A stretch of 64,000 nucleotides of DNA. Source: an uncultured Bacteroidales bacterium (GTDB taxonomy: Bacteria > Bacteroidota > Bacteroidia > Bacteroidales > WCHB1-69). The position numbers and the translations under genes are program-made. The stretch lies in contig ONAB01000005.1 of assembly GCA_900315705.1 (NCBI GenBank), forward strand, positions 48,510-112,509, given 5' to 3'. This document shows, piece after piece, positions 24,112 to 54,166 of the stretch (positions are counted from its first letter, which is position 1; every line of letters begins with the position of its first letter). Below the pieces are notes generated by a model that did not search any database, was not told the origin of the DNA, and worked only from the letters and a program-made list of their open reading frames with translations.

Positions 24112-25221
24112 ATGAAAAACATCCTCCACCTTTATTCGGAAAACGCCCTGGCATCCGACCTGACCGCACTGGTTTCGCGCACTCAAGGGACCGTCCAGAA
24201 CATCGGCGTCTTCCTTCCGCAAAACGAGGGATGCGTCGCCACTCCCGCCCCCGAACTTTCCATCCCCGTACACAGTTCCCCCACCCCTTTGGATTCCACC
24301 AAACACTTCCAGTACGACCAGGCGGTACGGAAATGCGCCGCATTCGTGGGGCAGCAGGTCAACCTTTCGGAGGTGTCGCTAATCCACGCCCATTCGCTTC
24401 TGGCTGGCGGCACCTTGGCACACGCCCTGCATTTGCAGCACGGCATACCCTATATAGCGGCCGTCACGATGGAGGACATCCGCTTCTGGCACGACAACCC
24501 TCTCCGCAGCCGGAAACTTCTGGTCCCTGTGCTCGAAAAGGCCACCCGCGTCATCTTCCTCAACAACAACTTCCAGGATTTCGTCGCAAGCCGGCTCAGC
24601 GACTCGGATGCCGACCGCATCTTCAGTCGCGCGCTGACCCTCCACAACGGCCTCGACCCCTTCTGGCTGCAGAACATACACATCCACAAGCCGGTTTCTA
24701 TGATACATATCCGCCTGCTCATCGCCGGCGACCAGCTGTCACCCAAGAGTCTGCCGCCCGTGCTGAAGGCCGTGCAGCTGCTGCGCAAGCGCAACTATGA
24801 TGTGTCGCTGACCGTGGTGGGCTGCACGCAGCAAAGTGCGGTGGTCAAAGACCCTTCGGTCCGTTTTCTGCCCTCCCCCACCCGCGAGGGACTCTTCCAA
24901 ATCCTTCGGGAGAGTGACATCTATATCACTCCCGCGCCCCAACACGCCACGCGGCAGTACTATGCCGAGGCGCTGTCGCAGGGGCTCCCCCTCCTCTACG
25001 ACCCGCACAACGGCCCCGACGGACTCAGTCCAGACGGCAAAATCGGCTATGCCACCCACACGCAATCCGCCGACGACCTGGCCGAGAAAATCCTGCTCGT
25101 GGGCGAGCGCTACGCCACCATCGAGCAGCACATCACTGACCTACACCCGCTGCACCTCTTCAACTGGGACGAGATTTACCGGGGGTACTTGAGGGTGTAT
25201 GACTCGGCGGGGGGAGTTTAG
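24112..25221 (+). CDS. glycosyltransferase (GT4-like)
   Basis: The ATG at 24112 is downstream of the TACTTTTG box at 24038-24045. The protein has a GT-B-like layout. The call is weak. Confidence 0.55.
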   Translation: MKNILHLYSENALASDLTALVSRTQGTVQNIGVFLPQNEGCVATPAPELSIPVHSSPTPLDSTKHFQYDQAVRKCAAFVGQQVNLSEVSLIHAHSLLAGGTLAHALHLQHGIPYIAAVTMEDIRFWHDNPLRSRKLLVPVLEKATRVIFLNNNFQDFVASRLSDSDADRIFSRALTLHNGLDPFWLQNIHIHKPVSMIHIRLLIAGDQLSPKSLPPVLKAVQLLRKRNYDVSLTVVGCTQQSAVVKDPSVRFLPSPTREGLFQILRESDIYITPAPQHATRQYYAEALSQGLPLLYDPHNGPDGLSPDGKIGYATHTQSADDLAEKILLVGERYATIEQHITDLHPLHLFNWDEIYRGYLRVYDSAGGV

Positions 25222-25251
25222 TGTTTAGACTTTAGACGTGAGACTATAGAC
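25217..25251. repeat. tandem heptamer array (TTTAGAC family, 5 units)
   Basis: TTTAGTG TTTAGAC TTTAGAC GTGAGAC TATAGAC. It begins inside the stop codon of the glycosyltransferase gene. Confidence 0.9.
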
Positions 25252-25320
25252 TTTCCTTGAGCAGCCCCGTAGGGGCAAGAGCTTGGTAGATCCACACAAG
25301 CGACGAAGTCGCGCAGTGTG

Positions 25321-25386
25321 GTGCCGTGAGGAGGAACCTGTGGCGCCGTGAGGAGGTGCCTGTGATGCCTTGACGAGGAGCCCCGC
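25321..25386. repeat. 22-bp tandem repeat (2 good units plus 1 degenerate unit)
   Basis: GTGCCGTGAGGAGGAACCTGTG / GCGCCGTGAGGAGGTGCCTGTG (19/22 identical), then a degenerate third unit. Confidence 0.85.
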
Positions 25387-25405
25387 AAATCGCAAATCGC
25401 AAATC
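25385..25405. repeat. tandem heptamer array (GCAAATC x3)
   Basis: Three perfect units that abut the stop codon (25407-25409) of the Omp85-family gene. Confidence 0.9.
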
Positions 25406-25406
25406 G

Positions 25407-27806
25407 CTAAAACGCGTACCCGATGGCAAATTTGAGGCCTTGGGAGAAGCGGACCTGACGCGGGCCAGAGAACCACTCCTTGTTGATCCATCGACCACCA
25501 AACGAGGTGCGCGTCGGGTCGTAAAGCGGCAAAGCATAGTCCACTCGGATCACCAGGAAATCGAAATCCAGTCGCAACCCTACCCCGGCATCCAGTGCCA
25601 GTTCTTTGTAGAAACGGTTAAACTTGAATTCCGCGCCGGGCATATCCCCGTGGTTGCGGGCCAGCCAAATGTTGCCCCAGTCGGCGAAGATGCCATACTT
25701 GAACGACCGGTAAAGCGTGCCCCGGTACTCCATATTGAGCTCTATCTTGATATCTCCGGTGAAAAGACTGTCCTTGCCGTGCTCGTAGCTGCCCGGTCCC
25801 AAGCCACGGTAGCTCCAGGCACGCATACTGTTGCTCGTCCCCAGATAAAAACCACGCTCGTACGGCACATACGACTCCTTGTCCAGCGGGATGATGGCCC
25901 CCGCGTTCATACGCATCGCGATAGTGTTGTTATTGTTGATCTTGTATGTGTAATTCCACGTGTATTCCAATTTTTCAAACGTGGTGTAGTTGTAGCCCTC
26001 ATCGTCCAGCGAGTTCCGGCTCAGCACCCAACGCTCCCCCGGACTGAAAAGGGCATTCAACCCCTTCAGGAAAAGTCCCGACGACTCGAAACTCAGCGAC
26101 ATACGCATATTATGGTTGCGCTGCTCGAAAGAGAAAGGCACCAGAAAATCAAAATTGTACTTCAACGAAAGCATAATGAACTTCCCGAACTTGTTCTGGT
26201 AGGTCTCCGAATAGTCTTCGAAATTGAGGATATTGGTATATAGACGGTTGTTAATGTTGATGGTACTGATATCAATGGGACTCAGGCTATGGTTGATATA
26301 ATAGTTTTTGCTCCAGTTATAGGTAATGCCGGTATTGTAAATCAAGCGGCGGTAAAGTCCCGAATAGTTCACACCGAAACGGAGCGCCGTATTCTGCCGA
26401 ATGTACCGATGCTTGCGATAGTTGCCAAAAAAGAGAAGTTTGGGGAACGACAACGAGACATTCACACCAAATTCCGGATAGGTGAAGGTTCTTTCTCTGC
26501 TGAAAAGATTGGAGAGCGAGTAGTAGAAATAGCCACCTGACAGGTTGACACTCAGATGCTCGGCACCCTTGAACAGGTTCCTGTTCGTGTAACTGAAGGA
26601 GACGTAGGACTTGTCATTGCGCAAGTCAATCTGGCCACCGACGCTATGCACTTTCTTGCGGGTCAACTTATAGAGGGCGTCGAGATAACCTATCCGATGC
26701 AGAGTGTCGAGCAGACTATCGGCCTCCACATACGAGATATTGATATAGGAAAAATTATCCAACTGGTTGAGTGACTGGCTGCTTTGGCGCTTGGCCGCTT
26801 GCGTGTACGGTTCGCCCGTATGGGTATAGATGGCGTCGGCAATGGTTCTGTACTGGAAATCGAGGATGGGCTCCGGAAGGTCGTCGTAATGCGGTGTGAT
26901 AAAACGGTATGTAGTGGAGTCGTACTTGTTCTTGAAATCGCGATAGCGCATTGTGTCCATTATCTGGTCGAAGGGGGCATTGGCGTCGAAATTGGTCTGC
27001 ACATACACATTATTGAAATAATACTTGTACAGATAGCGGGAGGCGTTTTCCCCCTTGGGGATACGCATCAGGATGGTCAGGGAGACGCTGTGCGGGTCTG
27101 GTTGTGTGGAGTCAGCAGGCTGGTCATAGGAGACCTCGCCTCTTATGATGGATTTCTCCACATAATAATAACCCTCATCTCGCAACAAGTTGATGATACG
27201 GGTAAACTCCTCCGTGATGAGGGCCTCGTTGTATTGCATTCCCTCGTGGAGCACCGACTCCAGCTTATGGATGACCACAATGCGCCTGTATTCGGGGATA
27301 TCAATGTCGTACTGTATCCTGCTGATTGTATAGGGTTCGTGGGCCGTTATGTTATAGTTGACCTTCACCTTCTTGGGATTGGTGCGGCGATGCACCACCT
27401 CATAATCGGTCTCCGCGTCGAAATAGCCCAACTGGCTCATCACCGTGGAGAGCTGGCGCAAAGAGCCCTCTATCTCCGTGGAGTCAAGCAGCACCGGCGC
27501 CTCGCCCATCCGGGTGCGCAGCATACGACGGAACTTGGAGTCCTTCAACTGCCCATTCTTGTCAAACTTGGGCTGCCCCAGACTGTATGCCATCGTGCGG
27601 ATGCTGAAGATGTCCATAAACTTCTTGTTGGTGATGGGACGCACGTAGGACTTGAGGTTGTCAAAGTCGGGATTGCGTTCATCCTTCACCACCACATTGT
27701 TCTTCACCAGCATATACTGGCCCTCCGAAAGCGGTTTGGTAGAGCTGCAGGCGGCTCCCAGCAACGCGATGAGCCAAAGCAGTGGTATCAGGCGCCGGCG
27801 GTTCAT
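25407..27806 (-). CDS. Omp85/BamA-TamA family outer-membrane protein
   Basis: Start at ATG 27804-27806 gives MNRRRLIPLLWLIALLGAAC (lipoprotein-type signal). The C-terminal surface-antigen beta-barrel ends ...FAIGYAF. Confidence 0.8.
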   Translation of the reverse strand: MNRRRLIPLLWLIALLGAACSSTKPLSEGQYMLVKNNVVVKDERNPDFDNLKSYVRPITNKKFMDIFSIRTMAYSLGQPKFDKNGQLKDSKFRRMLRTRMGEAPVLLDSTEIEGSLRQLSTVMSQLGYFDAETDYEVVHRRTNPKKVKVNYNITAHEPYTISRIQYDIDIPEYRRIVVIHKLESVLHEGMQYNEALITEEFTRIINLLRDEGYYYVEKSIIRGEVSYDQPADSTQPDPHSVSLTILMRIPKGENASRYLYKYYFNNVYVQTNFDANAPFDQIMDTMRYRDFKNKYDSTTYRFITPHYDDLPEPILDFQYRTIADAIYTHTGEPYTQAAKRQSSQSLNQLDNFSYINISYVEADSLLDTLHRIGYLDALYKLTRKKVHSVGGQIDLRNDKSYVSFSYTNRNLFKGAEHLSVNLSGGYFYYSLSNLFSRERTFTYPEFGVNVSLSFPKLLFFGNYRKHRYIRQNTALRFGVNYSGLYRRLIYNTGITYNWSKNYYINHSLSPIDISTININNRLYTNILNFEDYSETYQNKFGKFIMLSLKYNFDFLVPFSFEQRNHNMRMSLSFESSGLFLKGLNALFSPGERWVLSRNSLDDEGYNYTTFEKLEYTWNYTYKINNNNTIAMRMNAGAIIPLDKESYVPYERGFYLGTSNSMRAWSYRGLGPGSYEHGKDSLFTGDIKIELNMEYRGTLYRSFKYGIFADWGNIWLARNHGDMPGAEFKFNRFYKELALDAGVGLRLDFDFLVIRVDYALPLYDPTRTSFGGRWINKEWFSGPRQVRFSQGLKFAIGYAF

Positions 27807-27808
27807 AC

Positions 27809-28324
27809 TCAGTATTTGCTTTTGGCGGGATAGAAGATGTACAGACAACAGAGCAACAGAAAGGAAGTGAACACCGTATTGCACAAAATCACCAGCGACG
27901 TATGTCCGAAATTCGCGAATGAACTGGTTTCCAGCATCGTCACCAGCACTTGGTGTATCAAAGACAAAAGGATAACATAGAAGAAAATCCACTTGGTGTC
28001 TTTGATGCCGGGCACAAGGCGGTTGATGCCCTCCGTGCTCTTGCCGGAATCAAGACGTTTGACAAGATAGGGTCTGACAAACATCACCACCAGGCAGGCC
28101 AGGGCGTTCACGCCAAGAGTATGGGTGAACATATCCACCACCAAACCCGTGATGAAGCCGATGAAATATTGTGCGGAGAGCGGCAACTCTATCGGCAGCA
28201 GCAAAAGGGCCAGCAGATAGAGGGCGGGGGTGGCAAAGCCGAACAGGTTGATGTGGTTGCATACAAACACTTGCAGCACAATCAGCAGGAGGAAACGCAA
28301 TATGTTGGAAATGACGTTGTTCAC
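27809..28324 (-). CDS. mreD: rod shape-determining protein MreD
   Basis: 171-aa polytopic membrane protein directly after mreC. The stop lies 2 nt before the next start. Confidence 0.8.
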   Translation of the reverse strand: MNNVISNILRFLLLIVLQVFVCNHINLFGFATPALYLLALLLLPIELPLSAQYFIGFITGLVVDMFTHTLGVNALACLVVMFVRPYLVKRLDSGKSTEGINRLVPGIKDTKWIFFYVILLSLIHQVLVTMLETSSFANFGHTSLVILCNTVFTSFLLLCCLYIFYPAKSKY

Positions 28325-28336
28325 TGTATTATTATC

Positions 28337-29185
28337 CTATTCGGTCTTGAATCCTGCTTTCAAGGAGTCAAGTTCGGTTTTGTATTGGTTTTCTATCAAA
28401 TATACCAAGCCAAGCCGACTGAAGTCGGTGGCAAGTTTAATCTTGATGGTGAGGAAGCTGGCGTTCTTGCCAACCATCACCTCCTTGACGGTCCCGATGA
28501 GCAACCCTTTCGGGAAAATGTTGGAGTAGCCGCTGGTAAGCACCGAGTCGCCGATGTTGATCTCCAAGTGCTGCGGGATGTTCTCCAAATAGGCCACCCT
28601 GGGGTCGGGACCCTCCCAGACGACCGTGCCCACTTGGTTGATGGGCGACACTTGCGCGCTGATGCGCGAGTCGGGATGCAGTATCGGAATGACTGCCGCG
28701 AAGTGGTCGGACACATCACTCACCACCCCGACGACACCGGACGGCGAGGTCACGGCCATATCCTTGCAGATGCCGTCCTTGCCGCCCTTGTCGAGGACTA
28801 TGTAGTTGTAGGCCTGGTCTGTGGTCTTGAAGATGACGTGCGCGAAGGTGTAGTCGTAGAGACGCATCCGCTGCCGGTGCAGCGAGTCGGTCTCGCTCAT
28901 CCGCGTGAGCGTCGTGTCCTCCTTGACGATGAACATATTGTCGTGCTCGCGCATCAAGGCAATGTTCTGTTGCACCAGGTCCTCGTTCTCCTTACCGAGA
29001 CTGAAGGTGTGCACCATTTCCGACCAGCTCTTCTGGACCGGCCCTGTGACGGCTTGGCAGACGCGTGCAAACTTGTAGTGGCTGTACGACATCGACTTGC
29101 CCATCAGCAGCAGGCACAGCACCAGAAGAACTGCGAACAGGAAATAGTGAAAGTTGTTCTTCAGGAACTCGATCAGGTTGTTCAT
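28337..29185 (-). CDS. mreC: rod shape-determining protein MreC
   Basis: 282 aa with an N-terminal TM helix, a coiled segment, and a beta-rich C-terminal domain. Confidence 0.85.
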   Translation of the reverse strand: MNNLIEFLKNNFHYFLFAVLLVLCLLLMGKSMSYSHYKFARVCQAVTGPVQKSWSEMVHTFSLGKENEDLVQQNIALMREHDNMFIVKEDTTLTRMSETDSLHRQRMRLYDYTFAHVIFKTTDQAYNYIVLDKGGKDGICKDMAVTSPSGVVGVVSDVSDHFAAVIPILHPDSRISAQVSPINQVGTVVWEGPDPRVAYLENIPQHLEINIGDSVLTSGYSNIFPKGLLIGTVKEVMVGKNASFLTIKIKLATDFSRLGLVYLIENQYKTELDSLKAGFKTE

Positions 29186-29203
29186 AGGAACAATTCAGGA
29201 AGA

Positions 29204-29785
29204 TTACAGTTTTTCGGCGAACTCCTTGCCGGCGCGGAGGCAGGCGATGTTGGTGTTGACCACATCGTCACCCTTGCGGGCGAAGGTCTCGCGCACAGCT
29301 GCCTCTATCTCCTCGAAAGGAATGCCGAGATAGGGGGAAGCGGCACCGAGAATCACCATATTGGCGGAACGGGCAGAACCGAGATCCTTGGCAATCTGGT
29401 CGGCGTTGATGACGACCTTGTTCTTGAGCTTGCCCAGCTCCTCGGAAAGTTTTTCCGTGTCCGGATAGTTGGGGATGTTGATGAACGGCTGGTCGTTGGT
29501 GATGAGCCATCCCGTCTCGGGATTGAGCCACGGCAAGTAGCGCAGCGACTCCATAGGCTCCACGGAGATGATCATATCGGCCTTGCCCATCGGGATAAGG
29601 TCGGAAGCGATTTCCTGGTCGGAAAGACGGAAGTGCGACTGCACGTCGCCACCGCGCTGGCTCATACCGTGAACCTCAGCCTGTTTCATATACATTCCTC
29701 TTTTGACGGCTGCGTAGCCGACAATGGTGGCGATGGACAAGATGCCCTGACCGCCTACACCTGCTAATATGATGTCTATTTTCAT
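29204..29785 (-). CDS. iorB: indolepyruvate oxidoreductase subunit beta
   Basis: MKIDIILAGVGGQGILS... pyruvate/ketoisovalerate oxidoreductase gamma-type fold, downstream of iorA. Confidence 0.9.
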   Translation of the reverse strand: MKIDIILAGVGGQGILSIATIVGYAAVKRGMYMKQAEVHGMSQRGGDVQSHFRLSDQEIASDLIPMGKADMIISVEPMESLRYLPWLNPETGWLITNDQPFINIPNYPDTEKLSEELGKLKNKVVINADQIAKDLGSARSANMVILGAASPYLGIPFEEIEAAVRETFARKGDDVVNTNIACLRAGKEFAEKL

Positions 29786-29840: not shown

Positions 29841-29889
29841 GTTGACCAAAGTCCTAAGTCTAAAGTCTCAAGTCCAAGGTCAAGAACCC
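29841..29889. repeat. tandem heptamer array (NAAGTCY family, 7 units)
   Basis: GTTGACC AAAGTCC TAAGTCT AAAGTCT CAAGTCC AAGGTCA AGAACCC. It lies between the iorA stop (29896) and the iorB start. It is the reverse complement of the 25217 family. Confidence 0.9.
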
Positions 29890-29895
29890 AACATC

Positions 29896-31503
29896 CTACT
29901 TCTTCGCGGCCTGTTGTTTCTTCATACGACGGCTGAGGGTCTGGATGCACTCGCGGGTCGGGATGATGACGGAGACGCCTTCGTACTCGAGTTCCTTCTT
30001 GATGAGGGCAACGTTCTCAGCGTGATGAGGCTTCAGCGGGGTGATGCGGTGGATGTGTTCCTCCTTGACGCCGAGGCCCTTGCAAATCTCGCCGAGCACG
30101 CCGAGAGCGTGGGAATCCTGGCCACCGGTCATACCCGTGGTACTGTTGTCGAGAATCATCACCGTGACCGGCGTGTTCTCGTAGATGCAGTCGAGCAGGG
30201 AGGTCATACCGCTGTGGGTGAAGGTGGAGTCGCCAATGACAGCCATCACCGGGCGGAGGCCGGCGTCAGCGGCACCCTTCGCCATCGTGATGGAGGCGCC
30301 CATATCGACGGTGGTGTAGATAGCCTTGTAGGGAGGCAGCGCGCCGAGGGTGTAGCAACCGATGTCTGCAAACACCTTGCCTGCGCCGTATTCGGCCATA
30401 GCCTCGTTGATGGCGAGGTAGGAGTCGATGTGCGGGCAACCCACGCAAAGGGCGGGCGGACGGGGAACCACCAGTTCCGGGACGGGAGCACCGTAAGTGT
30501 CGGGCAGGCCGAGGGCCTTGGCCACGAGGTTCGGGTTGAGCTCGCCATCACGCGGCAGCGCGCCGGAGAGACGGCCGATGATGTTGCCGGTGCGGTTCAG
30601 CAGACCACGCACCTGCTCCTCGATGAAGGGATAACCCTCTTCGGCCACCAATACAGTCTCGCACTCGTCCACCATCTTGGCCACGAGCTTGGAAGGAACC
30701 GGGTATTGGGCAATCTTCAGCACCGGATAGGGGCACTTATGACCTTCAAAATTCTCCATCAGGTAGTTATAGGCAATACCGGAGGCGATGATACCGAACT
30801 TCTTGTCGGCACCATCAATATATTTGTTGAACGGAGAGTTCACAGACTCCTCCTCGAAAGCGTCCTGCTTGCCGAGCAGCGTGCGGTAATGCACACGGGC
30901 GTTGGCGGGCAGAAGGATGAACTGTTTCGGATTCTCCTCGATGTGCAGCGGGTTCTGCGGACGGGCCTCACGGCGTTCCACACCGGCACGGGAGTGCGAC
31001 AGGCGCGTGGTGAGACGAATCAGCACGGGCGTGCGGTATTTCTCCGAATAGTCGAAGGCGGCATACGTGATGTCGTAGGCCTCCTGCTGATTGGAGGGCT
31101 CAAACGAGGGAATGAGCGCGAACTTGGCATAGTAGCGGGAGTCCTGCTCGTCCTGCGAAGAGTGCATCGAGGGGTCGTCGGCCACCACCACCACCAGACC
31201 GCCGTTGGCGCCGGTGATGGAAGAGTTCATAAAGGGGTCGGCGGCCACGTTCAGACCCACGTGCTTCATACAGACCATCGCACGCTTGCCGGCGTATGAC
31301 ATACCGATGGCAGACTCCATAGCGGTCTTCTCATTGCCAGCCCAGATGCTGTGCACCTGGCCTTCCTTGCCTTGTTTAGAGTTTTGGATGAATTCCGTGA
31401 TTTCGGTGGAGGGAGTGCCCGGATAGGCGTACACTCCAGACAAGCCGGCGTCCAATGCAGCCTGGGCAACGGCTTCGTCTCCTAAGAATAATGTTTTAGA
31501 CAT
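29896..31503 (-). CDS. iorA: indolepyruvate ferredoxin oxidoreductase subunit alpha
   Basis: 535 aa with a TPP-dependent N-terminus (GDEAVAQAALDAGLSGVYAYPGTPSTEI) and a C-terminal Cys-rich ferredoxin-like segment. Confidence 0.9.
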   Translation of the reverse strand: MSKTLFLGDEAVAQAALDAGLSGVYAYPGTPSTEITEFIQNSKQGKEGQVHSIWAGNEKTAMESAIGMSYAGKRAMVCMKHVGLNVAADPFMNSSITGANGGLVVVVADDPSMHSSQDEQDSRYYAKFALIPSFEPSNQQEAYDITYAAFDYSEKYRTPVLIRLTTRLSHSRAGVERREARPQNPLHIEENPKQFILLPANARVHYRTLLGKQDAFEEESVNSPFNKYIDGADKKFGIIASGIAYNYLMENFEGHKCPYPVLKIAQYPVPSKLVAKMVDECETVLVAEEGYPFIEEQVRGLLNRTGNIIGRLSGALPRDGELNPNLVAKALGLPDTYGAPVPELVVPRPPALCVGCPHIDSYLAINEAMAEYGAGKVFADIGCYTLGALPPYKAIYTTVDMGASITMAKGAADAGLRPVMAVIGDSTFTHSGMTSLLDCIYENTPVTVMILDNSTTGMTGGQDSHALGVLGEICKGLGVKEEHIHRITPLKPHHAENVALIKKELEYEGVSVIIPTRECIQTLSRRMKKQQAAKK

Positions 31504-32415: not shown

Positions 32416-32515
32416 ACCTTGATCGAAATAAATTTTTGCAAATATAGCATTTTTAAAACATCATAGGAAAAAAATATTACTGCCAAAATGTCAGCAACGG
32501 CAGACGATTTTTTTT

Positions 32516-44775: not shown

Positions 44776-44967
44776 CAGCCCGAAAGTTGAACCCCTGATT
44801 TCAAAAAGAAAGGAGCGCAACAATGAGAATAAAGAACGACAACATCCGATAAGAACAATTCTGTTTCAAGCTGTTACAGATATTGTGGCGAACATTGAAC
44901 GTGTCCGCCGTTTTTAGCATTTATCATTTTTAACCGATACAGAAATGCTTTTCTGTGTCAATAATCA

Positions 44968-45030
44968 GGCCAAAAGCTAACCGCCAATAGCCAAAAGCTA
45001 ATGGCCAATAGCCGACAGCCAATAGCAAGA
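44968..45030. repeat. tandem heptamer array (AGCCAAT/AGCTAAY family, 9 units)
   Basis: GGCCAAA AGCTAAC CGCCAAT AGCCAAA AGCTAAT GGCCAAT AGCCGAC AGCCAAT AGCAAGA. It ends 3 nt before ATG 45034 and contains ATG 45001. Confidence 0.9.
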
Positions 45031-46431: not shown

Positions 46432-46437
46432 ACGATT

Positions 46438-47061: not shown

Positions 47062-47067
47062 GAGGGG

Positions 47068-47207
47068 GGCTGTTAGCTGTTAGCTGTTAGCTGTTAGCTG
47101 TTAGCTATTAGCTATTAGCTATTAGCTATTAGCTATTGGCTATTAGCTATTAGCTATTGGCTGTTAGCTATTAGCTATTGGCTGTTAGCTATTTGTTGTT
47201 GGCTGTT
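47068..47207. repeat. tandem heptamer array (AGCTGTT/AGCTATT family, 20 units)
   Basis: Five AGCTGTT-type units are followed by AGCTATT/GGCTATT/GGCTGTT variants. It starts 6 nt after the prfH stop. It is the reverse-complement family of the arrays at 41350 and 44968. Confidence 0.95.
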
Positions 47208-47252
47208 AGCGGCAGGGGCGAGGGACTTGAAGCACAAATGACGTGATCGCTT

Positions 47253-48638
47253 TTACGATTGTCTGTTTCCAAGCTTATCAATGATAAACACTTCACCATT
47301 CTTCTTCACTTCGTATCTTCTTCCTTTTTCGTCAATATCTTCATATTCCATAGGCACCTGTTCCACACCTTGTTTGTTTACAAGACCATATACAAAGTTG
47401 CCATTCTTGTCACGATTTCTTACCTTACACAATCCATTCTTGTCAAAACGCCATATACAGTCATATTGGAATGGCGTAATATAATTCAGTTGCGAGTCAA
47501 TGATGCCATATTTGCCATTTCTCTTTAATTCATAATAGCCATCGCCACAACTTTCTATTACCGGTGTATTGTCCTCCTTAAGAACAGGAATACCATTAAC
47601 GGATGTCAACTCCTTGTGTTGAGGGGAAACCGTTACCGGAACTGATGTGAAAAGTTCTTCAAGATGATAATTATGATGACCTTTCACAAAGTCTTTGCCA
47701 AGATACAAATGTTGAATATCGTGGAGATCACTATGCATATCGTATAGATGACGATGATAAAAATAATCCATTTCAAATCTCCAATCTCCATTGAGCCCTA
47801 ATGTTTTCGTCGCATCATCCCAGAAATAGGTTGGCGGAACATTAAAAACGGGCGTCCATTTTCCTCCAGGACCTTGACTATTGACATTTACAGAATCACT
47901 CTCCATTGGCATAGAAATTCGGCCGGTAGAGAGCAGTTCAAATTCGCCAATAGACACTTTATACTCTTCAAGATATTTGCCATAGGACCGATCCCCGTCA
48001 AAATATTGGTCCATAATGAATGCACCATAGCGGTAGCAACATTTTTTACCGCTTACTTCTTTATGTGCCCAATCGTAATAGGGACTGTGGGTTTTCCACA
48101 GATACAACAGCATCCCGAACTCGGCCAAAGGTTCTTCCACAAACATCGCGTATGGATAATTCTCGTGTCCAGGACGGTTGAAATAAGCGTGCATAACCTC
48201 GTGAGCGAAGGTCGATACCAGATATTCATCCATCTTGCCTGTATCGGCATCCGCCATCGCCTCCGGGAACAGTTTGATGATGTTATTCTGACTGTCATAT
48301 AGACCGAGTAATCTCATCGCAGAATGTGCCTTTCGTTCTATATTTAGCTTCCAAATTTTCACTTCAGCCTTTTGGCATTCATTACGTAAAGACTCATCCT
48401 CTCTACTCATTTCGTAGAGTTTCTTATATACCTTTCTCCAATACTCAATGGCTTTGTCGTAATAGCTGTCCACCACGCGTTCGGGTTTGCCCGGCTCAAT
48501 GAAAACACCCACTTTTAACTTGGTGAGGATGTCGTCCAGCGACACAAAGTCGCCCAGCATAAAGGGTTTGCTGGCAGATTTTTCCAACAAATCCACCTGT
48601 TTTGTGGTTAACAAATTGTCTTTGTTTGAAATTCTCAT
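47253..48638 (-). CDS. predicted zincin metallopeptidase (HExxH-X18-E) with C-terminal WG repeats
   Basis: FAHEVMHAYF (nt 48189-48203) with EE 18-19 residues downstream (FVEEPLAEF) is a gluzincin pattern. The C-terminal ~95 aa show KWG/WG beta-repeat signatures (NGKYGIID..., NFVYGLVNKQG...). It is AT-rich. Confidence 0.6.
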   Translation of the reverse strand: MRISNKDNLLTTKQVDLLEKSASKPFMLGDFVSLDDILTKLKVGVFIEPGKPERVVDSYYDKAIEYWRKVYKKLYEMSREDESLRNECQKAEVKIWKLNIERKAHSAMRLLGLYDSQNNIIKLFPEAMADADTGKMDEYLVSTFAHEVMHAYFNRPGHENYPYAMFVEEPLAEFGMLLYLWKTHSPYYDWAHKEVSGKKCCYRYGAFIMDQYFDGDRSYGKYLEEYKVSIGEFELLSTGRISMPMESDSVNVNSQGPGGKWTPVFNVPPTYFWDDATKTLGLNGDWRFEMDYFYHRHLYDMHSDLHDIQHLYLGKDFVKGHHNYHLEELFTSVPVTVSPQHKELTSVNGIPVLKEDNTPVIESCGDGYYELKRNGKYGIIDSQLNYITPFQYDCIWRFDKNGLCKVRNRDKNGNFVYGLVNKQGVEQVPMEYEDIDEKGRRYEVKKNGEVFIIDKLGNRQS

Positions 48639-48717
48639 GTATTACAGCAATTTCCTACACATCGCGAGGTTTTTAAGTTATTTTAATCAAAATATCTTCA
48701 AAGTTTTCACTATGTAT

Positions 48718-49560
48718 TTATTTTCGATACTCATAGTGAGATACACCACCTATATAAAGTTTTCTCATTTTGGCAATAGTTATTCTTTTTTTTCTGCAAA
48801 GTTTTTCAAAATCAGTCCAATATGAACATATTCCATACTGTCTAAACTGCGTATATGTGTGGACGCTGATTCCATCCGAAGTTTTGACTTTTATATTCTT
48901 AGATTTACTGCGCACTTTGTCTTCGACAAACTTTCCCCAATACTGTTTAAGTTGCTCAAATGTTATATTTTTGTGTTTATTTAAATAAAATTTTATGGCC
49001 TCGGCTGCAGCTTCTCCCATAGACTTACATTCCTTTCCATTGACTTCAAAATGATCCCTTTTGTCAAATTGTTGAATCTCAATGGTGTTTTGTTCTGGAT
49101 CAATGAAAATTCCAACCACACTTGAACTTCTATTAATCTTTTTAATAATTTCATTGCCATATCGAAGATACTTCTCACAAGCATTTTTCCCCTTCTGGGT
49201 ATCAGGATAAAGAATAGCAACATATTGAATAGGATTCTTCAATCCCAACAACGCTAGTCTAGAGAGTAATTTCTTGGATAACTGATCAGCACGTGTGGCA
49301 TCAATTTCAATAACCCAATCAGGAACCCCTTTCGCCTGTCCCAATATATCAACAGAATCTTTCTCAGAACGCCCTCTTGCAGTTTTCTCTATCTCCCATT
49401 TATATCCATTGGGGGTTTTATTGAGTTCTTCATTAATTTTATTCTGAAACTCTTCTACCTTTGAATGGTCAATAGTTTTGCTTTTTCTAGCAGATTTTAA
49501 AATATGCAATTGTTTTTTGATTGCTTCACATAAATTCTCGATATTCATATCATTATCCAT
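48718..49560 (-). CDS. hypothetical protein with possible restriction-endonuclease-like core
   Basis: 280 aa. The DSVDILG-X9-WVIEIDATR segment resembles a degenerate PD-(D/E)xK core. The C-terminal half is unknown. It is AT-rich. Confidence 0.45.
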   Translation of the reverse strand: MDNDMNIENLCEAIKKQLHILKSARKSKTIDHSKVEEFQNKINEELNKTPNGYKWEIEKTARGRSEKDSVDILGQAKGVPDWVIEIDATRADQLSKKLLSRLALLGLKNPIQYVAILYPDTQKGKNACEKYLRYGNEIIKKINRSSSVVGIFIDPEQNTIEIQQFDKRDHFEVNGKECKSMGEAAAEAIKFYLNKHKNITFEQLKQYWGKFVEDKVRSKSKNIKVKTSDGISVHTYTQFRQYGICSYWTDFEKLCRKKRITIAKMRKLYIGGVSHYEYRK

Positions 49561-49646
49561 TTCAAATTTACTTTATAATTTTTATTCGACATTTTACTTA
49601 TAATGCCACATTATGATTAGAGTATTGTAATTTACATATACATTTC

Positions 49647-50708
49647 TCACGCATAATTTTCTTCAATCTCTTTTTCTATCAACTTATACTTCTCTCCCAT
49701 ATCTTCTCCAGTGTAGAATTTAAAGAGATCCTCTTTGGTCAAAGTGCCATCTTTCAGGAATTTGAGGAGATACTTCTCATTAAACTGCACCATCATCATA
49801 CTTTTTTCAAGCATTTTCAAAATATTTTTGTTGTTGGAGATGTTTGTTTCCACCATAGTTTTGATTTTCTGTATTTCGGTTACATCCTTAACAATGCGGG
49901 TAATGATGATAGCCAATAAATCTTTGTCGTAATCAACTTGTTTTGAATGGATGGCAATGTCACGGGCCAACATATAGGCAATGGCCAGATTGGTGTAGTT
50001 GCCCGCCTGCGAATCTATTATTACCACAAAGCCCACCTGCGGTATATACGCCATATTATCAGTCAGATTGATTATGCTGCTGTCTGCCAATGCTTTGTCA
50101 AAAACTATTATACTGCACTTCGATTCACGGTTATAATCGGCCTCGATAAGCTGTCCCCAAGCGGTATCCTGTTTTGTCTTGTTGAAAACCTCATATCCCT
50201 TAATATCTCCCAATTTCACGTTTTTGTTGAATTTGCACTCAATAGCGATAGTCTTATTGTCCGAAGAGTCTATCTTACAAATGATATCTCCTGTTTTATT
50301 GTCACCTTGTGCCTTTTCAGTACCCGAAAGCGAAACTTCGTCCTTTATATTCCTCGATTCCAAATAGGCTTTCAACGCCTCGGCAATATCGTTTTCGGCT
50401 ATCATTCCCTTAACCGCAGTTTTGAAGAACACCTCCTGTTTCATATCGAAAATCTTTTTCAGACTTTCCAGTTCCATTCCCAAATCGCTGGATGTTTTGT
50501 CCAAAAACGAGGACAAACGGTCTTCCATCATTGCGAGGACACCAATATAAAGTGCCCGTAAGAAAGACTTGTCGCGCTCGTCAGCGGGCACCTTCTTGTC
50601 GAAATACTCAAAAACAATTTCGTTGTCGAGTTCAAAAGCATTCACCTTAATACGCTTATTCTGCTGATCAAGGTTTCCAATAATACTTGCTGTTTCCTTT
50701 TTTGCCAT
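49647..50708 (-). CDS. RmuC/DUF2130-like PD-(D/E)xK nuclease-fold protein
   Basis: 353 aa. KG-x3-E (res 100-105), D141 and E157-C-K159 (TGDIICKID...IAIECKF) are in the order seen in RmuC/DUF2130-type nucleases. The C-terminal third is helical. It is AT-rich. Confidence 0.55.
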   Translation of the reverse strand: MAKKETASIIGNLDQQNKRIKVNAFELDNEIVFEYFDKKVPADERDKSFLRALYIGVLAMMEDRLSSFLDKTSSDLGMELESLKKIFDMKQEVFFKTAVKGMIAENDIAEALKAYLESRNIKDEVSLSGTEKAQGDNKTGDIICKIDSSDNKTIAIECKFNKNVKLGDIKGYEVFNKTKQDTAWGQLIEADYNRESKCSIIVFDKALADSSIINLTDNMAYIPQVGFVVIIDSQAGNYTNLAIAYMLARDIAIHSKQVDYDKDLLAIIITRIVKDVTEIQKIKTMVETNISNNKNILKMLEKSMMMVQFNEKYLLKFLKDGTLTKEDLFKFYTGEDMGEKYKLIEKEIEENYA

Positions 50709-50882
50709 AATTATATTATTTATAAAATTTCCATTTAGTCAATTTTTACAACCCCTATCTTGCAAAAGTTCAAAATGATCCTCAGATGCCTTAATCACAC
50801 TATCTATGTTCAAAATTTCAAACTTTTTCACGCCGTTTCTCCAGCCACCGCTAGGCCCGTTAAACAGAGCCCTTTGGCACCG

Positions 50883-50890
50883 CAAAGATA
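50883..50890 (-). promoter_or_regulatory. -7 box (TATCTTTG), candidate promoter of the three-gene operon
   Basis: Perfect TAnnTTTG on the - strand, 174 nt upstream of ATG 50708 and just outside the MITE. Confidence 0.45.
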
Positions 50891-50928
50891 TATTTTTTTT
50901 CACTTTACAAAACTCCCATCATTTTTTT

Positions 50929-51069
50929 CGGAATTATCCCTTTAAGTCTTGCCAAAAAATGGTGTGATAATCTGCGTTAATCTGCGTGGTCTGCGGGACA
51001 ATCATAAGCCCGCCGAACTCGCAGAAATACGCAGACAGGGTATTTACAAGATCCGAGGGGATAATTCAG
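50929..51069. mobile_element. 141-bp MITE-like element derived from the IS1595-family element ends
   Basis: The left end CGGAATTATCCCTTTAAGTCTTG (50929-50951) is 22/23 identical to the IS IRR. The right end (51047-51069) is an inverted, degenerate copy (17/23). The 95-bp core holds three direct TCTGCG and two inverted CGCAGA repeats. Confidence 0.65.
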
Positions 51070-51146
51070 TTCTATTTTTGCAATTTCATATCACAGCCCG
51101 ACAAACAGCAATGCTTCGATGAGATATGATTTTTCAAAGTCTGATA

Positions 51147-51941
51147 TTATTCTCTTCTTATATGAACAAACACACCTTTGTCGCCTGCAGTGCCGTATGC
51201 GCTGATGTTCACTATTTGATAACCATACTTGTCGTATGGCGTGATGGAGCCTCCCGAACGCAGGTTCAACACCAGCTCATTCGGCAGACTGTTAAAGGCT
51301 TCTTCTTCGGAGAAGTATTTTTTGCGAGAAAGGAAATATTCCTTCAAACGTCTGTCAATTTCTTCCGCAGAGACCGTTTTCCAGTCCACACCAGGGAATG
51401 TCTTTTCTGAAATATATTCTTTGACAGTATCCGACTTCACCTCATAATACCAATCCACATAGTGAGTCGGCAAGCCGACAATGCGCTCGTATTTATTGCC
51501 CAACGGCACTTTATTGCAACCTCTGACCTGCAGATAAAAATCTTCCTTGTTTTTTGTATCGATTCTCATTTCCCACTTAAGGTCCTTGACATTAGCCAGT
51601 TCGCGTTTAAGAATCTCTCCCAAGGTCACATCTTTTGACACCAACTCATCTTCATCCACATAACCCGGGACTTTACGCAGATATTCGTGGTAATAGCTGC
51701 ACCCACCATAAAGGCATATTTCCTCGCGACCTTTAAGTTCAGATTCGGAATGTGAACGAATCTCGTTTACAATCTTATTATACTCTTTTGGATCGCTTCG
51801 ATGGCAATCCTGTTTTTTGACAAGGATCTCGATTGCCTCTTCAAACGTGTCGGCGTATGCGATATGTTTATAGATCGTTGAAGTCTCGCTTTCATAGAAA
51901 TCTGCCGTGTACAATTCGTACTTGTGAATTTTATTATCCAT
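51147..51941 (-). CDS. hypothetical protein
   Basis: ATG at 51939-51941 (MDNKIHKYELY...); the longer ORF in the track starts at a TTG. 264 aa, acidic, AT-rich, no motif recognised. Confidence 0.55.
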   Translation of the reverse strand: MDNKIHKYELYTADFYESETSTIYKHIAYADTFEEAIEILVKKQDCHRSDPKEYNKIVNEIRSHSESELKGREEICLYGGCSYYHEYLRKVPGYVDEDELVSKDVTLGEILKRELANVKDLKWEMRIDTKNKEDFYLQVRGCNKVPLGNKYERIVGLPTHYVDWYYEVKSDTVKEYISEKTFPGVDWKTVSAEEIDRRLKEYFLSRKKYFSEEEAFNSLPNELVLNLRSGGSITPYDKYGYQIVNISAYGTAGDKGVFVHIRRE

Positions 51942-52006
51942 AATAATTATTTTTTGTTTTAATATCCTACCCTTTCGTCGCTTTGTTTTTTTATTGCCCT
52001 TCCATT

Positions 52007-52741
52007 TCAATCCATCTCATTGGGGTCAAACACCATCTCGCCCAGGTGGATGGCAAATAATGTCACACCAGCTGAGACTAACTTCGGGAAACTGAAGAAG
52101 CGTCCATTTTCATCCACTTCGACAGTATAGAACTTCCCATTTACTCGTACCATAAACTCGGCACAATCAGGAAATTCTTCCAAAAGCTCGCCTACCGTGA
52201 TGCTGTCCGATTCCTCGTCTTCATCGTAGCACAGGCAGAGTTTTCCATAGTCATACCACAGACAATTCGCACGATACACTCTCAACACATTACCGTGCCA
52301 CAATTGGGGCACCACCTTGAAATCGAGGAATCCTTTCTTATCAACTTTTTTCAATTCGGCCTCAATCTGTTGCGTGGTGAGGAGTCGCACATCACGGTCC
52401 ATCATAAACTGGCAAAAATCCTCCTCCTCGTCGTACTTGAAGATGGCGCCGTTTTTGTATGGCTCGAAGTTCAGCATTTCCCAACCTTCTTGTATCACCA
52501 CTCCGAGTGATGCGTCCAGCAAGCGAAACATCGCCAGGAGGTCTTCCGCCGTGGCCGCGCGCTTCTTCTTGCCGGTGGTTTCCAATATGGCAATGTCCTT
52601 GCGCAGTTTGATGCCTTCCACGTACATATCTTCGCCATCGTAACAGTACTCCAGGAAAATGCCCGGCTTCTTCTCAACAATCTGTTCCAGGTCTTTCACG
52701 ATCTGCCCGACCGTCGCATTCGGTTTTTGCAAAATAGTCAT
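52007..52741 (-). CDS. hypothetical protein
   Basis: 244 aa, acidic and W/F/Y-rich, with no motif recognised. It is preceded by a 95-nt leader containing an 8-bp stem (GGAGCCTC 52755-52762 / GAGGCTCC 52800-52807). Confidence 0.55.
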   Translation of the reverse strand: MTILQKPNATVGQIVKDLEQIVEKKPGIFLEYCYDGEDMYVEGIKLRKDIAILETTGKKKRAATAEDLLAMFRLLDASLGVVIQEGWEMLNFEPYKNGAIFKYDEEEDFCQFMMDRDVRLLTTQQIEAELKKVDKKGFLDFKVVPQLWHGNVLRVYRANCLWYDYGKLCLCYDEDEESDSITVGELLEEFPDCAEFMVRVNGKFYTVEVDENGRFFSFPKLVSAGVTLFAIHLGEMVFDPNEMD

Positions 52742-52836
52742 CTTTTCTCTATCGGGAGCCTCTGTTTTTACTCTTCCTCGTCACATCTTCAGACCCTGCG
52801 AGGCTCCATAAGACAGCATCGGAAGATATGACGATG

Positions 52837-52844
52837 CAAAAATA
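52837..52844 (-). promoter_or_regulatory. -7 box (TATTTTTG) for the 52741->51147 operon
   Basis: TATTTTTGCATCGT on the - strand, preceded by GCTACTCGCAAAAA (52871-52881 core). Confidence 0.6.
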
Positions 52845-52952
52845 CAATTAATGTGGGTCTAGCTATATTTTTGCGAGTAGCAAACCAGAGAGCTCCCCTA
52901 GCGCATTGAACATCTACACTATAATAACACAGCAAATTCAGCGCCCGACAGG

Positions 52953-54131
52953 TCAGAACCGCCTGTAGCTGTACCGGCCGAGGTCGAAATCATCAATGTC
53001 AAGATTGATGCCGTAGCGTGGGTTGCCGTAACGGTCTTTGCCCATTATCTGAACGCTATAGCACTTGCCATACTTGTCTTTAATGGTATCCGTGTCAAAT
53101 TCCGTGTTGAAAAATTTACGGATGGAAGAGAGCGCATTATCGAAATCATTGTACGACGGATCCCACCAGGATTCAATATTTTTAACCTTAGCCGAATATT
53201 TGTGGCCGATTCTCTGATAGATTTCCAGGAGTTCTTCTTTGTAACTCTCCAATTCCTGTTTCGAAATGTATATGGGGTCTGTGTGGTCCATCTTCGCGCG
53301 CTCTATCTGTCGCAAGAAGAACACATACAAGGCTTTGGCCACGCCGCGGCGTCCGAAGACCACCTCGTGACGCACGTTTTCTGAAAGGATAACGTAAATT
53401 TTCTCGTCTTCAACCTTCAGTTTGAAAGGGGTGGCCACCTTGCATTCGTCTTTTTGCCTTTGCATTTCACTCTCCAGCGCGCTGTAAATGTCGTTGGCAT
53501 TTGTCTGCGCGGTAATGCTGTTGTTGAGAGCCGCAAGGTGCTGTTGCAGTTTCCGGACGATTTCCTTGGGATCCGGGGGCACAGTCATAAATGCTATCTC
53601 TCCCCAACCGGAGTATTGCTGCGGGCGACCGTACTCCTTCTTGGCCATTATAAAGTTGTAATAGGAGGTGCCGGCCATACGATAGAAGTTCTCATTCGCC
53701 ACGTCGCGGGCAAACAGTTGGGCGGTCTCCAGTGCCTCTTCGGGACTTGTCTTGCCAAAATCCTCGGCGATGCAGACGGCGCGGTCCTCCACGCGCACAT
53801 CGCCAGAGAATCTGGGCAGGCAGCGGGCAGTGAGGGTGCCGCCGGTGTCGGCCTGGAGGCACTCGCGCAGCGCGTCGATGGTGCCGTCCACCAGCTCGGG
53901 GGCGAAGAGGCCGGCGAAGCGTGCGCGGAGACGGTCAGCGGCCAGCTCCTCGCGGGTGAGGCACAGCAGCTTGAACGGGAAGGGCTGCACCTCGGCGTTC
54001 TCAAACAAGGGCCGATGCGATTGCTCGATCTGCCGCATAGCCTGGTTCAGGGGTTCATTATCAGGGCTATCGACGAAATATACGGTGTCGAAAGCGAGGG
54101 GGACGAGAAATGAGAGAGATGTAGGGGACAT
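52953..54131 (-). CDS. hypothetical protein with conserved C-terminal KYGKCYS...DRYGNPRYGI module
   Basis: 392-aa ORF. The C-terminal 50 aa are homologous to the frame-B part of the 40703-41196 pseudogene, and a 29-nt core is 28/29 identical at DNA level. Confidence 0.6.
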   Translation of the reverse strand: MSPTSLSFLVPLAFDTVYFVDSPDNEPLNQAMRQIEQSHRPLFENAEVQPFPFKLLCLTREELAADRLRARFAGLFAPELVDGTIDALRECLQADTGGTLTARCLPRFSGDVRVEDRAVCIAEDFGKTSPEEALETAQLFARDVANENFYRMAGTSYYNFIMAKKEYGRPQQYSGWGEIAFMTVPPDPKEIVRKLQQHLAALNNSITAQTNANDIYSALESEMQRQKDECKVATPFKLKVEDEKIYVILSENVRHEVVFGRRGVAKALYVFFLRQIERAKMDHTDPIYISKQELESYKEELLEIYQRIGHKYSAKVKNIESWWDPSYNDFDNALSSIRKFFNTEFDTDTIKDKYGKCYSVQIMGKDRYGNPRYGINLDIDDFDLGRYSYRRF

Positions 54132-54166
54132 AGAATTGAGATTTGAGAATTAAGAATTGAGTACTA
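54132..54166. repeat. tandem heptamer array (AGAATTG family, 5 units)
   Basis: AGAATTG AGATTTG AGAATTA AGAATTG AGTACTA. It starts at the nucleotide next to the start codon (54129-54131) of the 392-aa gene. Confidence 0.9.

Follow-up and report, generated by a model that had tools for sequence, protein, structure and literature searches.

In this article, I discuss eight tandem arrays of heptanucleotides in a 64,000-nucleotide stretch of DNA from an uncultured rumen Bacteroidales bacterium (GenBank assembly GCA_900315705.1, contig ONAB01000005.1, positions 48,510 to 112,509; the whole stretch is called the window), and argue that they are probably heptameric simple sequence repeats (SSRs) made by slippage, similar to the short tandemly repeated repetitive (STRR) sequences of cyanobacteria, and kept only in those orientations that gene expression tolerates. 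The arrays are real, they abut the ends of coding regions beyond chance, and they show a fixed polarity relative to the neighboring gene. The sequence analyzed consists of the 64 kb from the source genome and ~0.4 Mb of related loci (given L numbers below), so that the window and the non-redundant loci of related uncultured Bacteroidales form a comparison set of 473 kb. Genes in the relatives were called with an in-house open reading frame (ORF) caller based on codon usage, which was trained on each locus against a background of antisense frames and whose output was checked against Pfam within the window, and de-duplicated counts were obtained by collapsing orthologous arrays into 30 clusters, an orthology correction that is approximate.

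Eight arrays within 30 kb

Tandem Repeats Finder (TRF) reports a period-7 array at each of the eight loci where a first-pass annotation of this DNA had placed one (Table 1; arrays are named here by the first position of the TRF call), a strict periodicity scan of the window over periods 4 to 15 passes only period 7 (four arrays), period 14 and one hexamer, and no period-7 array appears in 30 dinucleotide-preserving shuffles of the window. About five unit families occupy the eight loci, and the annotation had correctly assigned TTAGACT to arrays 25224 and 29848, and TTAGCTR/AGCCAAT to arrays 41350, 44969 and 47069. Array 25224 reads GTTTAGT GTTTAGA CTTTAGA CGTGAGA CTATAGA CTTT and includes the TAG stop codon (25219-25221) of the glycosyltransferase gene; array 25384 has 3.4 perfect copies (100% matches) that start at the base right behind the BamA stop codon, with BamA keeping its usual C-terminal Phe; and array 47069 has 17.9 copies (score 180-207) with a 21-bp super-period, as does array 44969, for which this three-unit period is the TRF call itself. 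The units carry 0-2 G each, and the pattern GGGN4GGGN4GGGN4GGG, describing a G-quadruplex with four tracts of at least three G at 7-nt spacing, has no match in the window. Families with a stop triplet are found at seven of the eight loci, as had been stated, the exception being the BamA array, which has no stop codon in any frame on either strand. The accompanying claim that a few units close all three frames is true of the TAGCTA-type arrays, on both strands (all frames are likewise closed on both strands of array 25224), but in the sense direction half of the eight arrays leave at least one frame open, and only four close all three. Assembly artefact, a concern that the annotation itself had raised, is ruled out by four independent assemblies of the species, from two assemblers, that reproduce the arrays (identically at four of five), and comparable arrays are present in GTDB, JGI and ENA contigs of relatives; all of the assemblies compared are short-read assemblies, which are unreliable across repeat arrays.

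Period, position and polarity

The preference for seven is not confined to the window. Period 7 accounts for 55 TRF rows (at least 3 copies) in the 473 kb, against 20 for period 8, 9 for period 6 and at most 4 for any other period, and heptamer arrays are also found in termite-gut Bacteroidetes (L013, L027, L028 and L035) with a BamA only ~39% identical; L007 and L011 have none. Across the window and the relatives, 39 of the 49 arrays lie in called intergenic DNA, which makes up 10.3% of the sequence, and several of the remaining 10 sit at the edges of gene calls. Random placement of the 39 inside their own spacers would bring 10.2 to within 7 nt of a coding-region end, and 27 are found there; with orthologues collapsed the figures are 15 of 25 against 5.8 expected, and the window alone gives a Fisher-combined p of 7e-4. 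The comparison of distances with random positions that had been proposed as a check therefore shows an excess. Within the window, three arrays precede start codons and five follow stop codons, just as first described: array 41350 is 2-6 nt from the AAA-ATPase stop, array 47069 begins 7 nt past the PrfH-like stop, array 44969 reaches ~6 nt from the rtcB ATG at 45034 (with another in-frame ATG, 45001, within the array itself), and array 41205 is 8 nt from the ATG at 41196, or 0 nt if degenerate units are counted. A spacing of 0-7 nt had been claimed for every array and is correct for most, but array 29848 lies ~10-21 nt from the iorA-like stop. Since the start codons in the relatives are in-house calls, and frame-closing arrays push a called start to just behind themselves, part of the start-side abutment is built in and the stop-side abutment is the more reliable of the two.

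The strand that reads 5' to 3' away from the adjacent coding region has more G than C by 23 de-duplicated arrays to 1 (binomial p = 3e-6; 36 of 43 arrays before de-duplication), whatever the orientation of the neighboring gene. Read in the sense of the mRNA, stop-side arrays are G/T-rich, with the units TTTAGAC, GATTTGC and GTTAGCT/ATTGGCT in the window (G 9 and C 6 in array 25224; G 15 and C 8 in array 41350) and TGGTTAT, TTGGNTT, GGTTTAG and GAGAATT in the relatives, and start-side arrays are A/C-rich and G-poor, with ACTAATC (array 41205; G 3, C 16), AGCCAAT/AGCTAAC (array 44969; G 12, C 18) and CAATTCT (array 54132; no G). These three leader arrays hold 0, 1 and 0 NTG codons, respectively, in the sense direction and 7, 6 and 3 in antisense. 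Where a spacer contains two arrays, either strand presents the G-rich one first and the C-rich one second, and some such pairs are true inverted repeats; examples are 25224/25384 and 41205/41350 in the window and spacers in L006, L009, L014, L015, L016, L022, L024, L027 and L028. The earlier remark that the families recur in both orientations is correct for the plus strand, but overlooks that orientation is fixed relative to the neighboring gene. Replication-strand bias is ruled out as the cause, because both orientations occur within the single spacers 25224/25384 and 41205/41350, and general base composition is ruled out for the stop side, where array-free post-stop sequence has a G/C skew of -0.02; array-free leaders have an A fraction of 0.45 and a G fraction of 0.10 over their last 20 nt. 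Two further statistics, both weak hints in that orthologues are not independent, are a TTRG core on the G-rich strand of 14 of 35 units (6.1 expected; 0 on the opposite strand) and a greater homogeneity of gene-proximal than of distal units, by 16 arrays to 4.

Copy-number change and spacer replacement

Over 10-20 kb, four same-species contigs, drawn from short-read assemblies with near-identical contigs collapsed, match the window at 100% identity save for one 21-bp difference: L001 is without the three distal units of array 47069, the sole difference in 20.6 kb. The copy number of the BamA array is 3 both in the window and in L016 but 5 in L022, whereas the degenerate array 29848 is unchanged apart from one substitution in L016, and such variation of perfect arrays next to a stable degenerate one is as slippage would predict. 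The copy-number differences anticipated among relatives do exist, then, and those that could be placed are internal or distal, none being gene-proximal. Whole spacers also change. The iorA-iorB spacer is 14-18 nt long and without an array in L007 and L011, and 87-153 nt long in ten other relatives, in eight of which a stop-side heptamer array opens it. The families differ by lineage (TTAGACT-type; ATTAGCT/ATTGGCT; TTGGNTT followed by its complement CCAACAA; TGGTTAT; TAGGCAA), and TRF finds no period-7 array in the spacers of L008 and L009 (121 and 123 nt). Between the window and L022, this spacer has been replaced exactly from stop codon to start codon by one holding a different heptamer family, with coding flanks that are 98-99% identical, and the synteny break between the window and L016/L022 falls within the array-bearing spacer 25212-25339. 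A few unit families recur at several loci and across species: the window shares GATTAGT with L005, CAATTCT with L022 and L006 (the family of array 54132, which as GAGAATT is stop-side in L022), and CCAAY/AGCCAAT with L014 and L015.

Other small modules share these spacers. Between arrays 25224 and 25384 lies a conserved hairpin element that is not a heptamer array; its consensus, CCTTGAGC-GCCCC-NNN-GGGGC-AAGAGCTYGGTAGA, recurs across species (L006 7947-7976, L010 4852-4881, L024 7943-7972, and the BamA spacers of L016 and L022), always adjoining heptamer arrays and with the G-rich array on the CCTTGAGC side. In the window, a second hairpin, CACACAAGCGACGAAGTCGCGCAGTGTG, comes next, and then a 22-bp tandem repeat with GGAGG (25317-25379). 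No Rfam family matches the region 25255-25379, and the conserved element may be either a small mobile element or an RNA element. Several relatives (L005, L018 and L019, with a variant in L009 and L021) show another type of inserted hairpin module in their expanded iorA-iorB spacer: a perfect 30-nt palindrome, TGTAGAGACGTTTCATGAAACGTCTCTACA, with GGGG behind it. Finally, L006 carries (CCCTAAA)n, the plant-type telomere repeat, at 14084-14138 between two bacterial genes and pairs it, across 17 nt, with an inverted GTTTATG/GTTTAGG array. The match to the telomere repeat is probably coincidental among G/T-rich heptamers, although it could be mistaken for plant contamination.

Promoters and RNA structure

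A scan for the Bacteroidetes -7 box (TAnnTTTG, TANNTTTG) gives 53 matches against 26.7 expected, and because such boxes lie upstream of arrays 41205 and 54132 (Table 1), these two arrays appear to sit inside transcribed 5' untranslated regions (UTRs). The nearest consensus box to rtcB, if used, might give that gene a leader of ~250 nt containing array 44969. The first-pass annotation had offered unstructured leaders for initiation without a Shine-Dalgarno (SD) sequence as one role for the arrays, and this agrees with the G-poor and NTG-free leaders of 41205 (predicted minimum free energy [MFE] 0 kcal/mol) and 54132 (-2.2 kcal/mol, z = +0.7), but not with the rtcB leader array, for which a fold of -18.8 kcal/mol is predicted (z = -4.2). 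Significant folding is also predicted for array 47069, whose self-complementary TAGCTA units would form a hairpin of -74.1 kcal/mol (z = -7.0), and for array 41350 (-20.3 kcal/mol, z = -1.95), making three arrays of the eight; the other five show no significant self-structure at z < -1.9, four of them with z between -1.6 and +1.05 (array 25224 at 0.08) and array 41205 with its MFE of 0. Arrays 44969 and 47069, which flank rtcB-prfH, are mutually complementary, with a predicted duplex of -74.1 kcal/mol against -29.1 +/- 5.5 kcal/mol for shuffles, but the significance of this inverted arrangement was discounted, three of the eight arrays belonging to that one family. A scan for intrinsic terminators is convincing at none of the arrays, with no U-tract behind the hairpins, and Rfam matches in the window are limited to two tRNAs, none at the arrays. 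As observations in their own right, the -7 box TATTTTTG is tandemly duplicated at 37955-37981 (three copies upstream of an N6-methyltransferase gene) and at 54235-54250 (two copies upstream of the YkuD gene), and period-8 repeats are the second most common tandem class in the clade.

Relation to known heptamer repeats

STRRs are defined operationally, in heterocystous cyanobacteria, and are not known to have a function. Their units reportedly include CCCCAGT, TTGGTCA and CAACAGT, as Mazel et al. are said to have described in 1990. The arrays of the window are STRR-like, as was first suggested, in that several heptamer families are dispersed as tandem arrays through the non-coding DNA of one genome; the host, however, is a rumen Bacteroidales, and no unit equals any of these three STRR units, although TTGGTCA resembles the TTGGTCT/TTGGCTA units of the window and of L014/L015. 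The existence of STRR heptanucleotides in Calothrix PCC 7601 is confirmed in Rehm et al. (PMC4692102). Mrazek et al. (2007), as cited in PMC4692102 and PMC4679880, found that in many bacteria no class of long SSR is more abundant than heptanucleotides, which may reflect the polymerase footprint.

The closest published parallel is that of Rehm et al. (2015; PMC4692102), who described GGGAATC in Xanthomonas and GGGGA(C/T)T in Nostoc PCC 7120 as 89-93% intergenic repeats located 0-50 bp from an ORF or overlapping its stop codon, with the G-rich strand being the coding strand downstream of ORFs and the non-coding strand upstream, for any ORF orientation. Those repeats occur as inverted pairs, are conserved in position while varying in length and sequence between close relatives, and have neither a functional theme among their neighbors nor an established function (PMC4692102). 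The arrays described here share the tandem 7-bp units, the intergenic location at ORF ends, the identical polarity, the inverted pairs and the varying length, and are heptameric SSRs, of the LSSR class of Mrazek (2007), by the same features: tandem repetition of at least 3 copies beyond chance, a non-coding bias, ORF-end polarity and conserved position with changing length and sequence. In contrast, the Xanthomonas and Nostoc units have runs of 3-4 G, form G-quadruplexes, prefer four units and belong to essentially one family per genome (PMC4692102), whereas the arrays here are without G-runs, are AT-richer, comprise ~five families in 30 kb with up to 20 units, and include some self-complementary hairpin formers; they are not members of the quadruplex-forming subclass.

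Such repeats had been thought undescribed in Bacteroidota, which is wrong, for five Bacteroidetes, among them Paludibacter of the Bacteroidales, join Beggiatoaceae and cyanobacteria in MacGregor's account (2015; PMC4679880) of heptamer direct repeats, TAACTGA and others. These repeats are mostly positioned just upstream of start codons in an A-rich "forward" orientation with no SD, though in Flexibacter litoralis they are reversed directly after a stop; TAACTGA repeats supply stops in all frames, some relatives have no repeats at the same spacer, and other families occupy the same spacers in Gramella, Aequorivita and Elizabethkingia (PMC4679880). Arrays 41205, 44969 and 54132 likewise face a start codon in the A-rich orientation with no SD, a likeness in behavior rather than membership: the window contains no TAACTGA array, and its one match, with 2 mismatches over (TAACTGA)2, lies in array 41205 (ACTAATC/ACTGATC units, the nearest of the eight) and is not above chance. 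Most arrays here are, moreover, stop-side, and many families coexist. A further precedent is Haemophilus influenzae, where 7-bp SSRs upstream of hmw1A and hmw2A lie in the transcribed 5' region and change copy number by slippage, with graded phase variation of these adhesins, according to two reports (PMC12721329; PMC8262952). The leader arrays resemble it as tandem heptamers in a putatively transcribed 5' region, but that system is locus-specific and the arrays here are dispersed, mostly stop-side and beside ordinary genes.

How the arrays may have come to lie where they do

In the reading that I consider probable, slipped-strand mispairing or unequal recombination would create the arrays and lengthen or shorten them. 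Because 7 is not a multiple of 3 and most units carry stop triplets, they would survive only in untranslated spacers, where they end pressed against coding regions. Selection on translation initiation would then be the filter that sets their orientation. On the start side, the permitted orientation would give G-poor, A/C-rich and nearly start-codon-free leaders of the kind that SD-independent Bacteroidetes ribosomes prefer, and here the reason is concrete and independently documented, since initiation in Bacteroidetes ignores the SD, requires upstream adenines and low structure, and is accompanied by AUG depletion near start codons (Baez et al., 2019; PMC6847099). On the stop side, it would give G/U-rich 3'-UTR or intercistronic tracts unlike initiation regions, with TAGCTA-type arrays also pairing with themselves into long hairpins, whereas a G-poor unstructured tract placed there might be an unwanted ribosome landing pad or, in an operon, a Rho loading site. 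Several points weigh against this. Array-free post-stop sequence has no skew, so that the stop-side polarity needs a reason of its own, and "avoid looking like a leader" is an argument only; the same polarity in Xanthomonas and Nostoc, which do use the SD, hints at a cause beyond Bacteroidetes translation; the rtcB leader array is predicted to be structured and carries an in-frame AUG; the start-side abutment is in part a product of ORF calling, as described above; transcription of the arrays is deduced from sequence; and a few recurring unit families with a weak TTRG core across species are not what pure slippage would predict.

The main rival, which I nevertheless consider unlikely, is that anchoring and polarity are by-products of array growth rather than of selection on expression, with no function or an incidental one; arrays might extend toward the 5' end of the G-rich strand, or be born as inverted pairs around a hairpin, until a coding region is reached. 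The polarity is indeed purely geometric and independent of gene orientation, an identical rule holds in two other phyla for units of quite different chemistry (PMC4692102), every two-array spacer runs from G-rich to C-rich (with inverted repeats at L006 14027/14084, L009 209/316 and L014 4153-4219), gene-proximal units are the more homogeneous, and several arrays overlap the last codons and stop of a gene. However, no known slippage mechanism yields such a polarity, a sharp gene-side edge and a fuzzy distal one follow trivially because arrays abut constrained sequence, the copy-number differences seen between relatives are not gene-proximal, and the G-poor orientation of leader arrays already fits the documented requirement. 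Also unlikely, at a level similar to this rival, is a broader proposition in which the polarity is a general rule of heptamer-array birth or growth at gene boundaries, or the work of a conserved strand-specific factor, rather than a matter of quadruplex biology or lineage-specific translation, a proposition that rests on three phyla sharing the polarity and on AT-rich Bacteroidales units being unable to form quadruplexes; arrays would then be modular gene-end blocks, exchanged wholesale between strains as at iorA-iorB and bracketing cassettes such as rtcB-prfH. Quite unlikely, in turn, are multi-site platforms for a strand-specific RNA- or single-stranded DNA-binding protein (a post-transcriptional regulator or, like bS1, a ribosome-associated protein), as was proposed for the Beggiatoaceae TAACTGA repeats (PMC4679880). 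A few families recurring at several loci and across species at 60-70% BamA identity, the strict polarity, the TTRG core and the near-match of array 41205 to (TAACTGA)2 in the published forward orientation (PMC4679880) would all suit a binding protein, but the TTRG statistic counts orthologues separately, at least five unrelated families interchange at the iorA-iorB spacer, where two relatives do without an array, and the neighboring genes have no common functional theme.

Three functional roles fare worse. Repetitive extragenic palindromes and bacterial interspersed mosaic elements (REP/BIME) of Enterobacteria are dispersed, transcribed, intergenic and hairpin-forming, and often follow stops or lie between cistrons; REPs are ~35-bp imperfect palindromes mobilized by RAYT transposases. 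RNA hairpins of this type, terminator-like or protecting 3' ends, or in the case of rtcB-prfH a 5'-UTR/3'-UTR duplex that closes the mRNA or makes an RNase III site, would draw on the predicted folds of arrays 47069, 44969 and 41350, on the rtcB-prfH duplex, on the inverted arrays of L006, L009, L014 and L015 and on the lack of any other intrinsic terminator found beside these genes. I find them improbable, given that the likeness to REP/BIME extends only to the TAGCTA-type and inverted arrays, that five of the eight arrays lack significant self-structure and most are tandem heptamers without palindromes, that no U-tract follows the hairpins and that, with three of the eight arrays in one family, finding it on both sides of rtcB-prfH is no great surprise. 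Contingency tracts, whose unit number would switch or grade expression of the neighboring gene, were among the first suggestions and I consider them very improbable: copy number does differ between close relatives (3 vs 5 units and the 21-bp indel), three arrays lie in putative 5' leaders and the H. influenzae precedent exists (PMC12721329; PMC8262952), but five of the eight arrays follow stop codons, no coding region and no stretch between -33 and -7 promoter elements contains an array (the leader arrays being downstream of the -7 boxes), and the neighbors are BamA, IorAB, RtcB, an AAA ATPase and the like rather than surface or restriction genes. Moreover, four independent assemblies are identical at four of five arrays, and for the Xanthomonas repeats Rehm et al. 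likewise decided against this role (PMC4692102). Least of all would I credit the frame-independent stop pads, also suggested at first, that would intercept ribosomes that have read through a stop or shifted frame. Stop triplets do occur in seven of the eight families and four arrays close every sense frame, those of TAGCTA type on both strands, yet stops are missing altogether from the perfectly conserved BamA array, half of the arrays leave a sense frame open, three arrays stand upstream of start codons, AT-rich spacers have stops anyway, and the 23:1 polarity goes unexplained when both orientations give stops (TAG from TTAG, TAA from CTAA).

Genomic context

The window has a G+C content of ~52%, and its BamA is at most 70% identical to that of any GTDB species representative, the nearest matches being metagenome-assembled genomes of uncultured rumen Bacteroidales. 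The same species, or relatives with a BamA 89-97% identical, are represented among metagenome contigs of ENA and JGI. By Pfam, the genes beside the arrays are ordinary or housekeeping genes with no common functional theme (Table 1). A 605-aa ORF at 27950-29767 (+) was rejected, since Pfam exposed it as a spurious antisense ORF over mreC and iorB. In public gene calls, rtcB starts at the in-frame ATG 45001 inside the array (476 aa), which would give RtcB an 11-residue N-terminal extension built of repeat units; a start at ATG 45034, right behind the array, is more plausible.

Table 1. Arrays, associated elements and neighboring genes (window coordinates)
Feature	Position	Strand	Basis and context	TRF period-7 call
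Stop-side array, TTTAGAC family	25215-25256	+	TRF; after glycosyltransferase gene	25224-25254
Stop-side array, GATTTGC in BamA sense (CGCAAAT on + strand)	25384-25406	-	TRF	25384-25407
Stop-side array, degenerate TTGGAC/TTGAGAC/TTTAGAC/TTAGGAC units	29841-29895	-	TRF; iorA-iorB-like spacer	29848-29874
Start-side array, ACTAATC family (sense)	41197-41253	-	TRF; fills putative 5' leader of UPF0227 gene	41205-41253
Stop-side array, GTTAGCT/TTTAGCT/GTTGGCY units (sense)	41350-41393	-	TRF; after AAA ATPase gene	41350-41387
Start-side array, AGCCAAT/AGCTAAC units, 21-bp super-period	44969-45033	+	TRF; before rtcB ATG 45034	44969-45013
Stop-side array, ~20 units GTTAGCT/ATTAGCT/ATTGGCT, 21-bp super-period	47062-47210	+	TRF; after PrfH-like gene	47069-47210
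Start-side array, CAATTCT family (sense)	54132-54161	-	TRF; touches ATG of gene 52953-54131	54132-54161
Conserved hairpin element (CCTTGAGCAGCCCCGTAGGGGCAAGAGCTTGGTAGA + second hairpin), not a heptamer array	25255-25316	+	Between the two arrays of the glycosyltransferase/BamA spacer	
Bacteroidetes-type -7 box TATTTTTG	41270-41277	-	Upstream of array 41205	
Bacteroidetes-type -7 box TAACTTTG	54222-54229	-	Upstream of array 54132	
Nearest consensus -7 box to rtcB, TACCTTTG	44768-44775	+	Consensus scan	
GT1 glycosyltransferase gene	24034-25221	+	Pfam GT1	
BamA gene	25407-27992	-	Pfam Omp85/POTRA; stop 25407-25409	
IorB-like oxidoreductase subunit gene	29204-29785	-	Pfam POR	
IorA-like oxidoreductase subunit gene	29896-31503	-	Pfam POR_N/TPP	
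UPF0227 hydrolase gene	40750-41196	-	Pfam; ATG 41194-41196	
AAA ATPase gene	41394-43145	-	Pfam AAA; stop 41394-41396	
rtcB gene	45034-46431	+	Pfam RtcB	
PrfH-like RF-1-domain protein gene	46438-47061	+	Pfam	
WG-repeat protein gene	47253-48638	-		
Unknown-protein gene	52953-54131	-	ATG 54129-54131	

Positions ~36000-54300 form a strain-variable accessory island with low-G+C patches, containing an IS1595 transposase, an N6-methyltransferase, an AAA ATPase, an AAA_14/DUF4143 ATPase and RtcB-PrfH; strains that are ~97% identical downstream have a Type I restriction-modification system, GmrSD and ParE/YoeB in its place, and no heptamer array occurs in 22 kb of strains with a 99% identical YkuD protein, where the island is a different one. 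Next to the iorA-like gene, the 255-aa gene 31648-32415 (no Pfam match) is missing in the otherwise collinear L016 and L022 and marks a small strain-specific insertion (31667-32473). Further downstream, 60161-60650 is a 490-bp non-coding segment with a 33-bp tandem repeat at 60226-60307 (2.5 copies) and an apparent remnant of a gene's 3' end; the place of this segment is taken in strain L041 by a gene for a 911-aa UvrD-like helicase.

Meaning and outlook

Heptameric repeats are the commonest long SSRs in bacteria and yet have no established function. To this known kind of element the arrays described here, their own function likewise unproven, add a new lineage and new unit families, and they carry the phenomenon into uncultured Bacteroidales of gut and rumen. 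What is new is that the published polarity rule holds for AT-rich, non-quadruplex units in a phylum that does not use the SD, that leader arrays contain little G and almost no start codons, and that one operon spacer holds different heptamer families across a clade, swapped even between near-identical strains. For those working with these genomes, it matters that length variation and spacer replacement between strains concentrate at the arrays, which are also likely break points in short-read assemblies and mislead ORF callers, as the rtcB start called inside an array illustrates. Polarity in units that form no quadruplex also weakens the quadruplex explanation offered for Xanthomonas and Nostoc. 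Furthermore, leader arrays that are G-free, start-codon-free and predicted to be unstructured provide natural test pieces for Bacteroidetes 5' UTRs, and would be useful in engineering gene expression in gut Bacteroidales.

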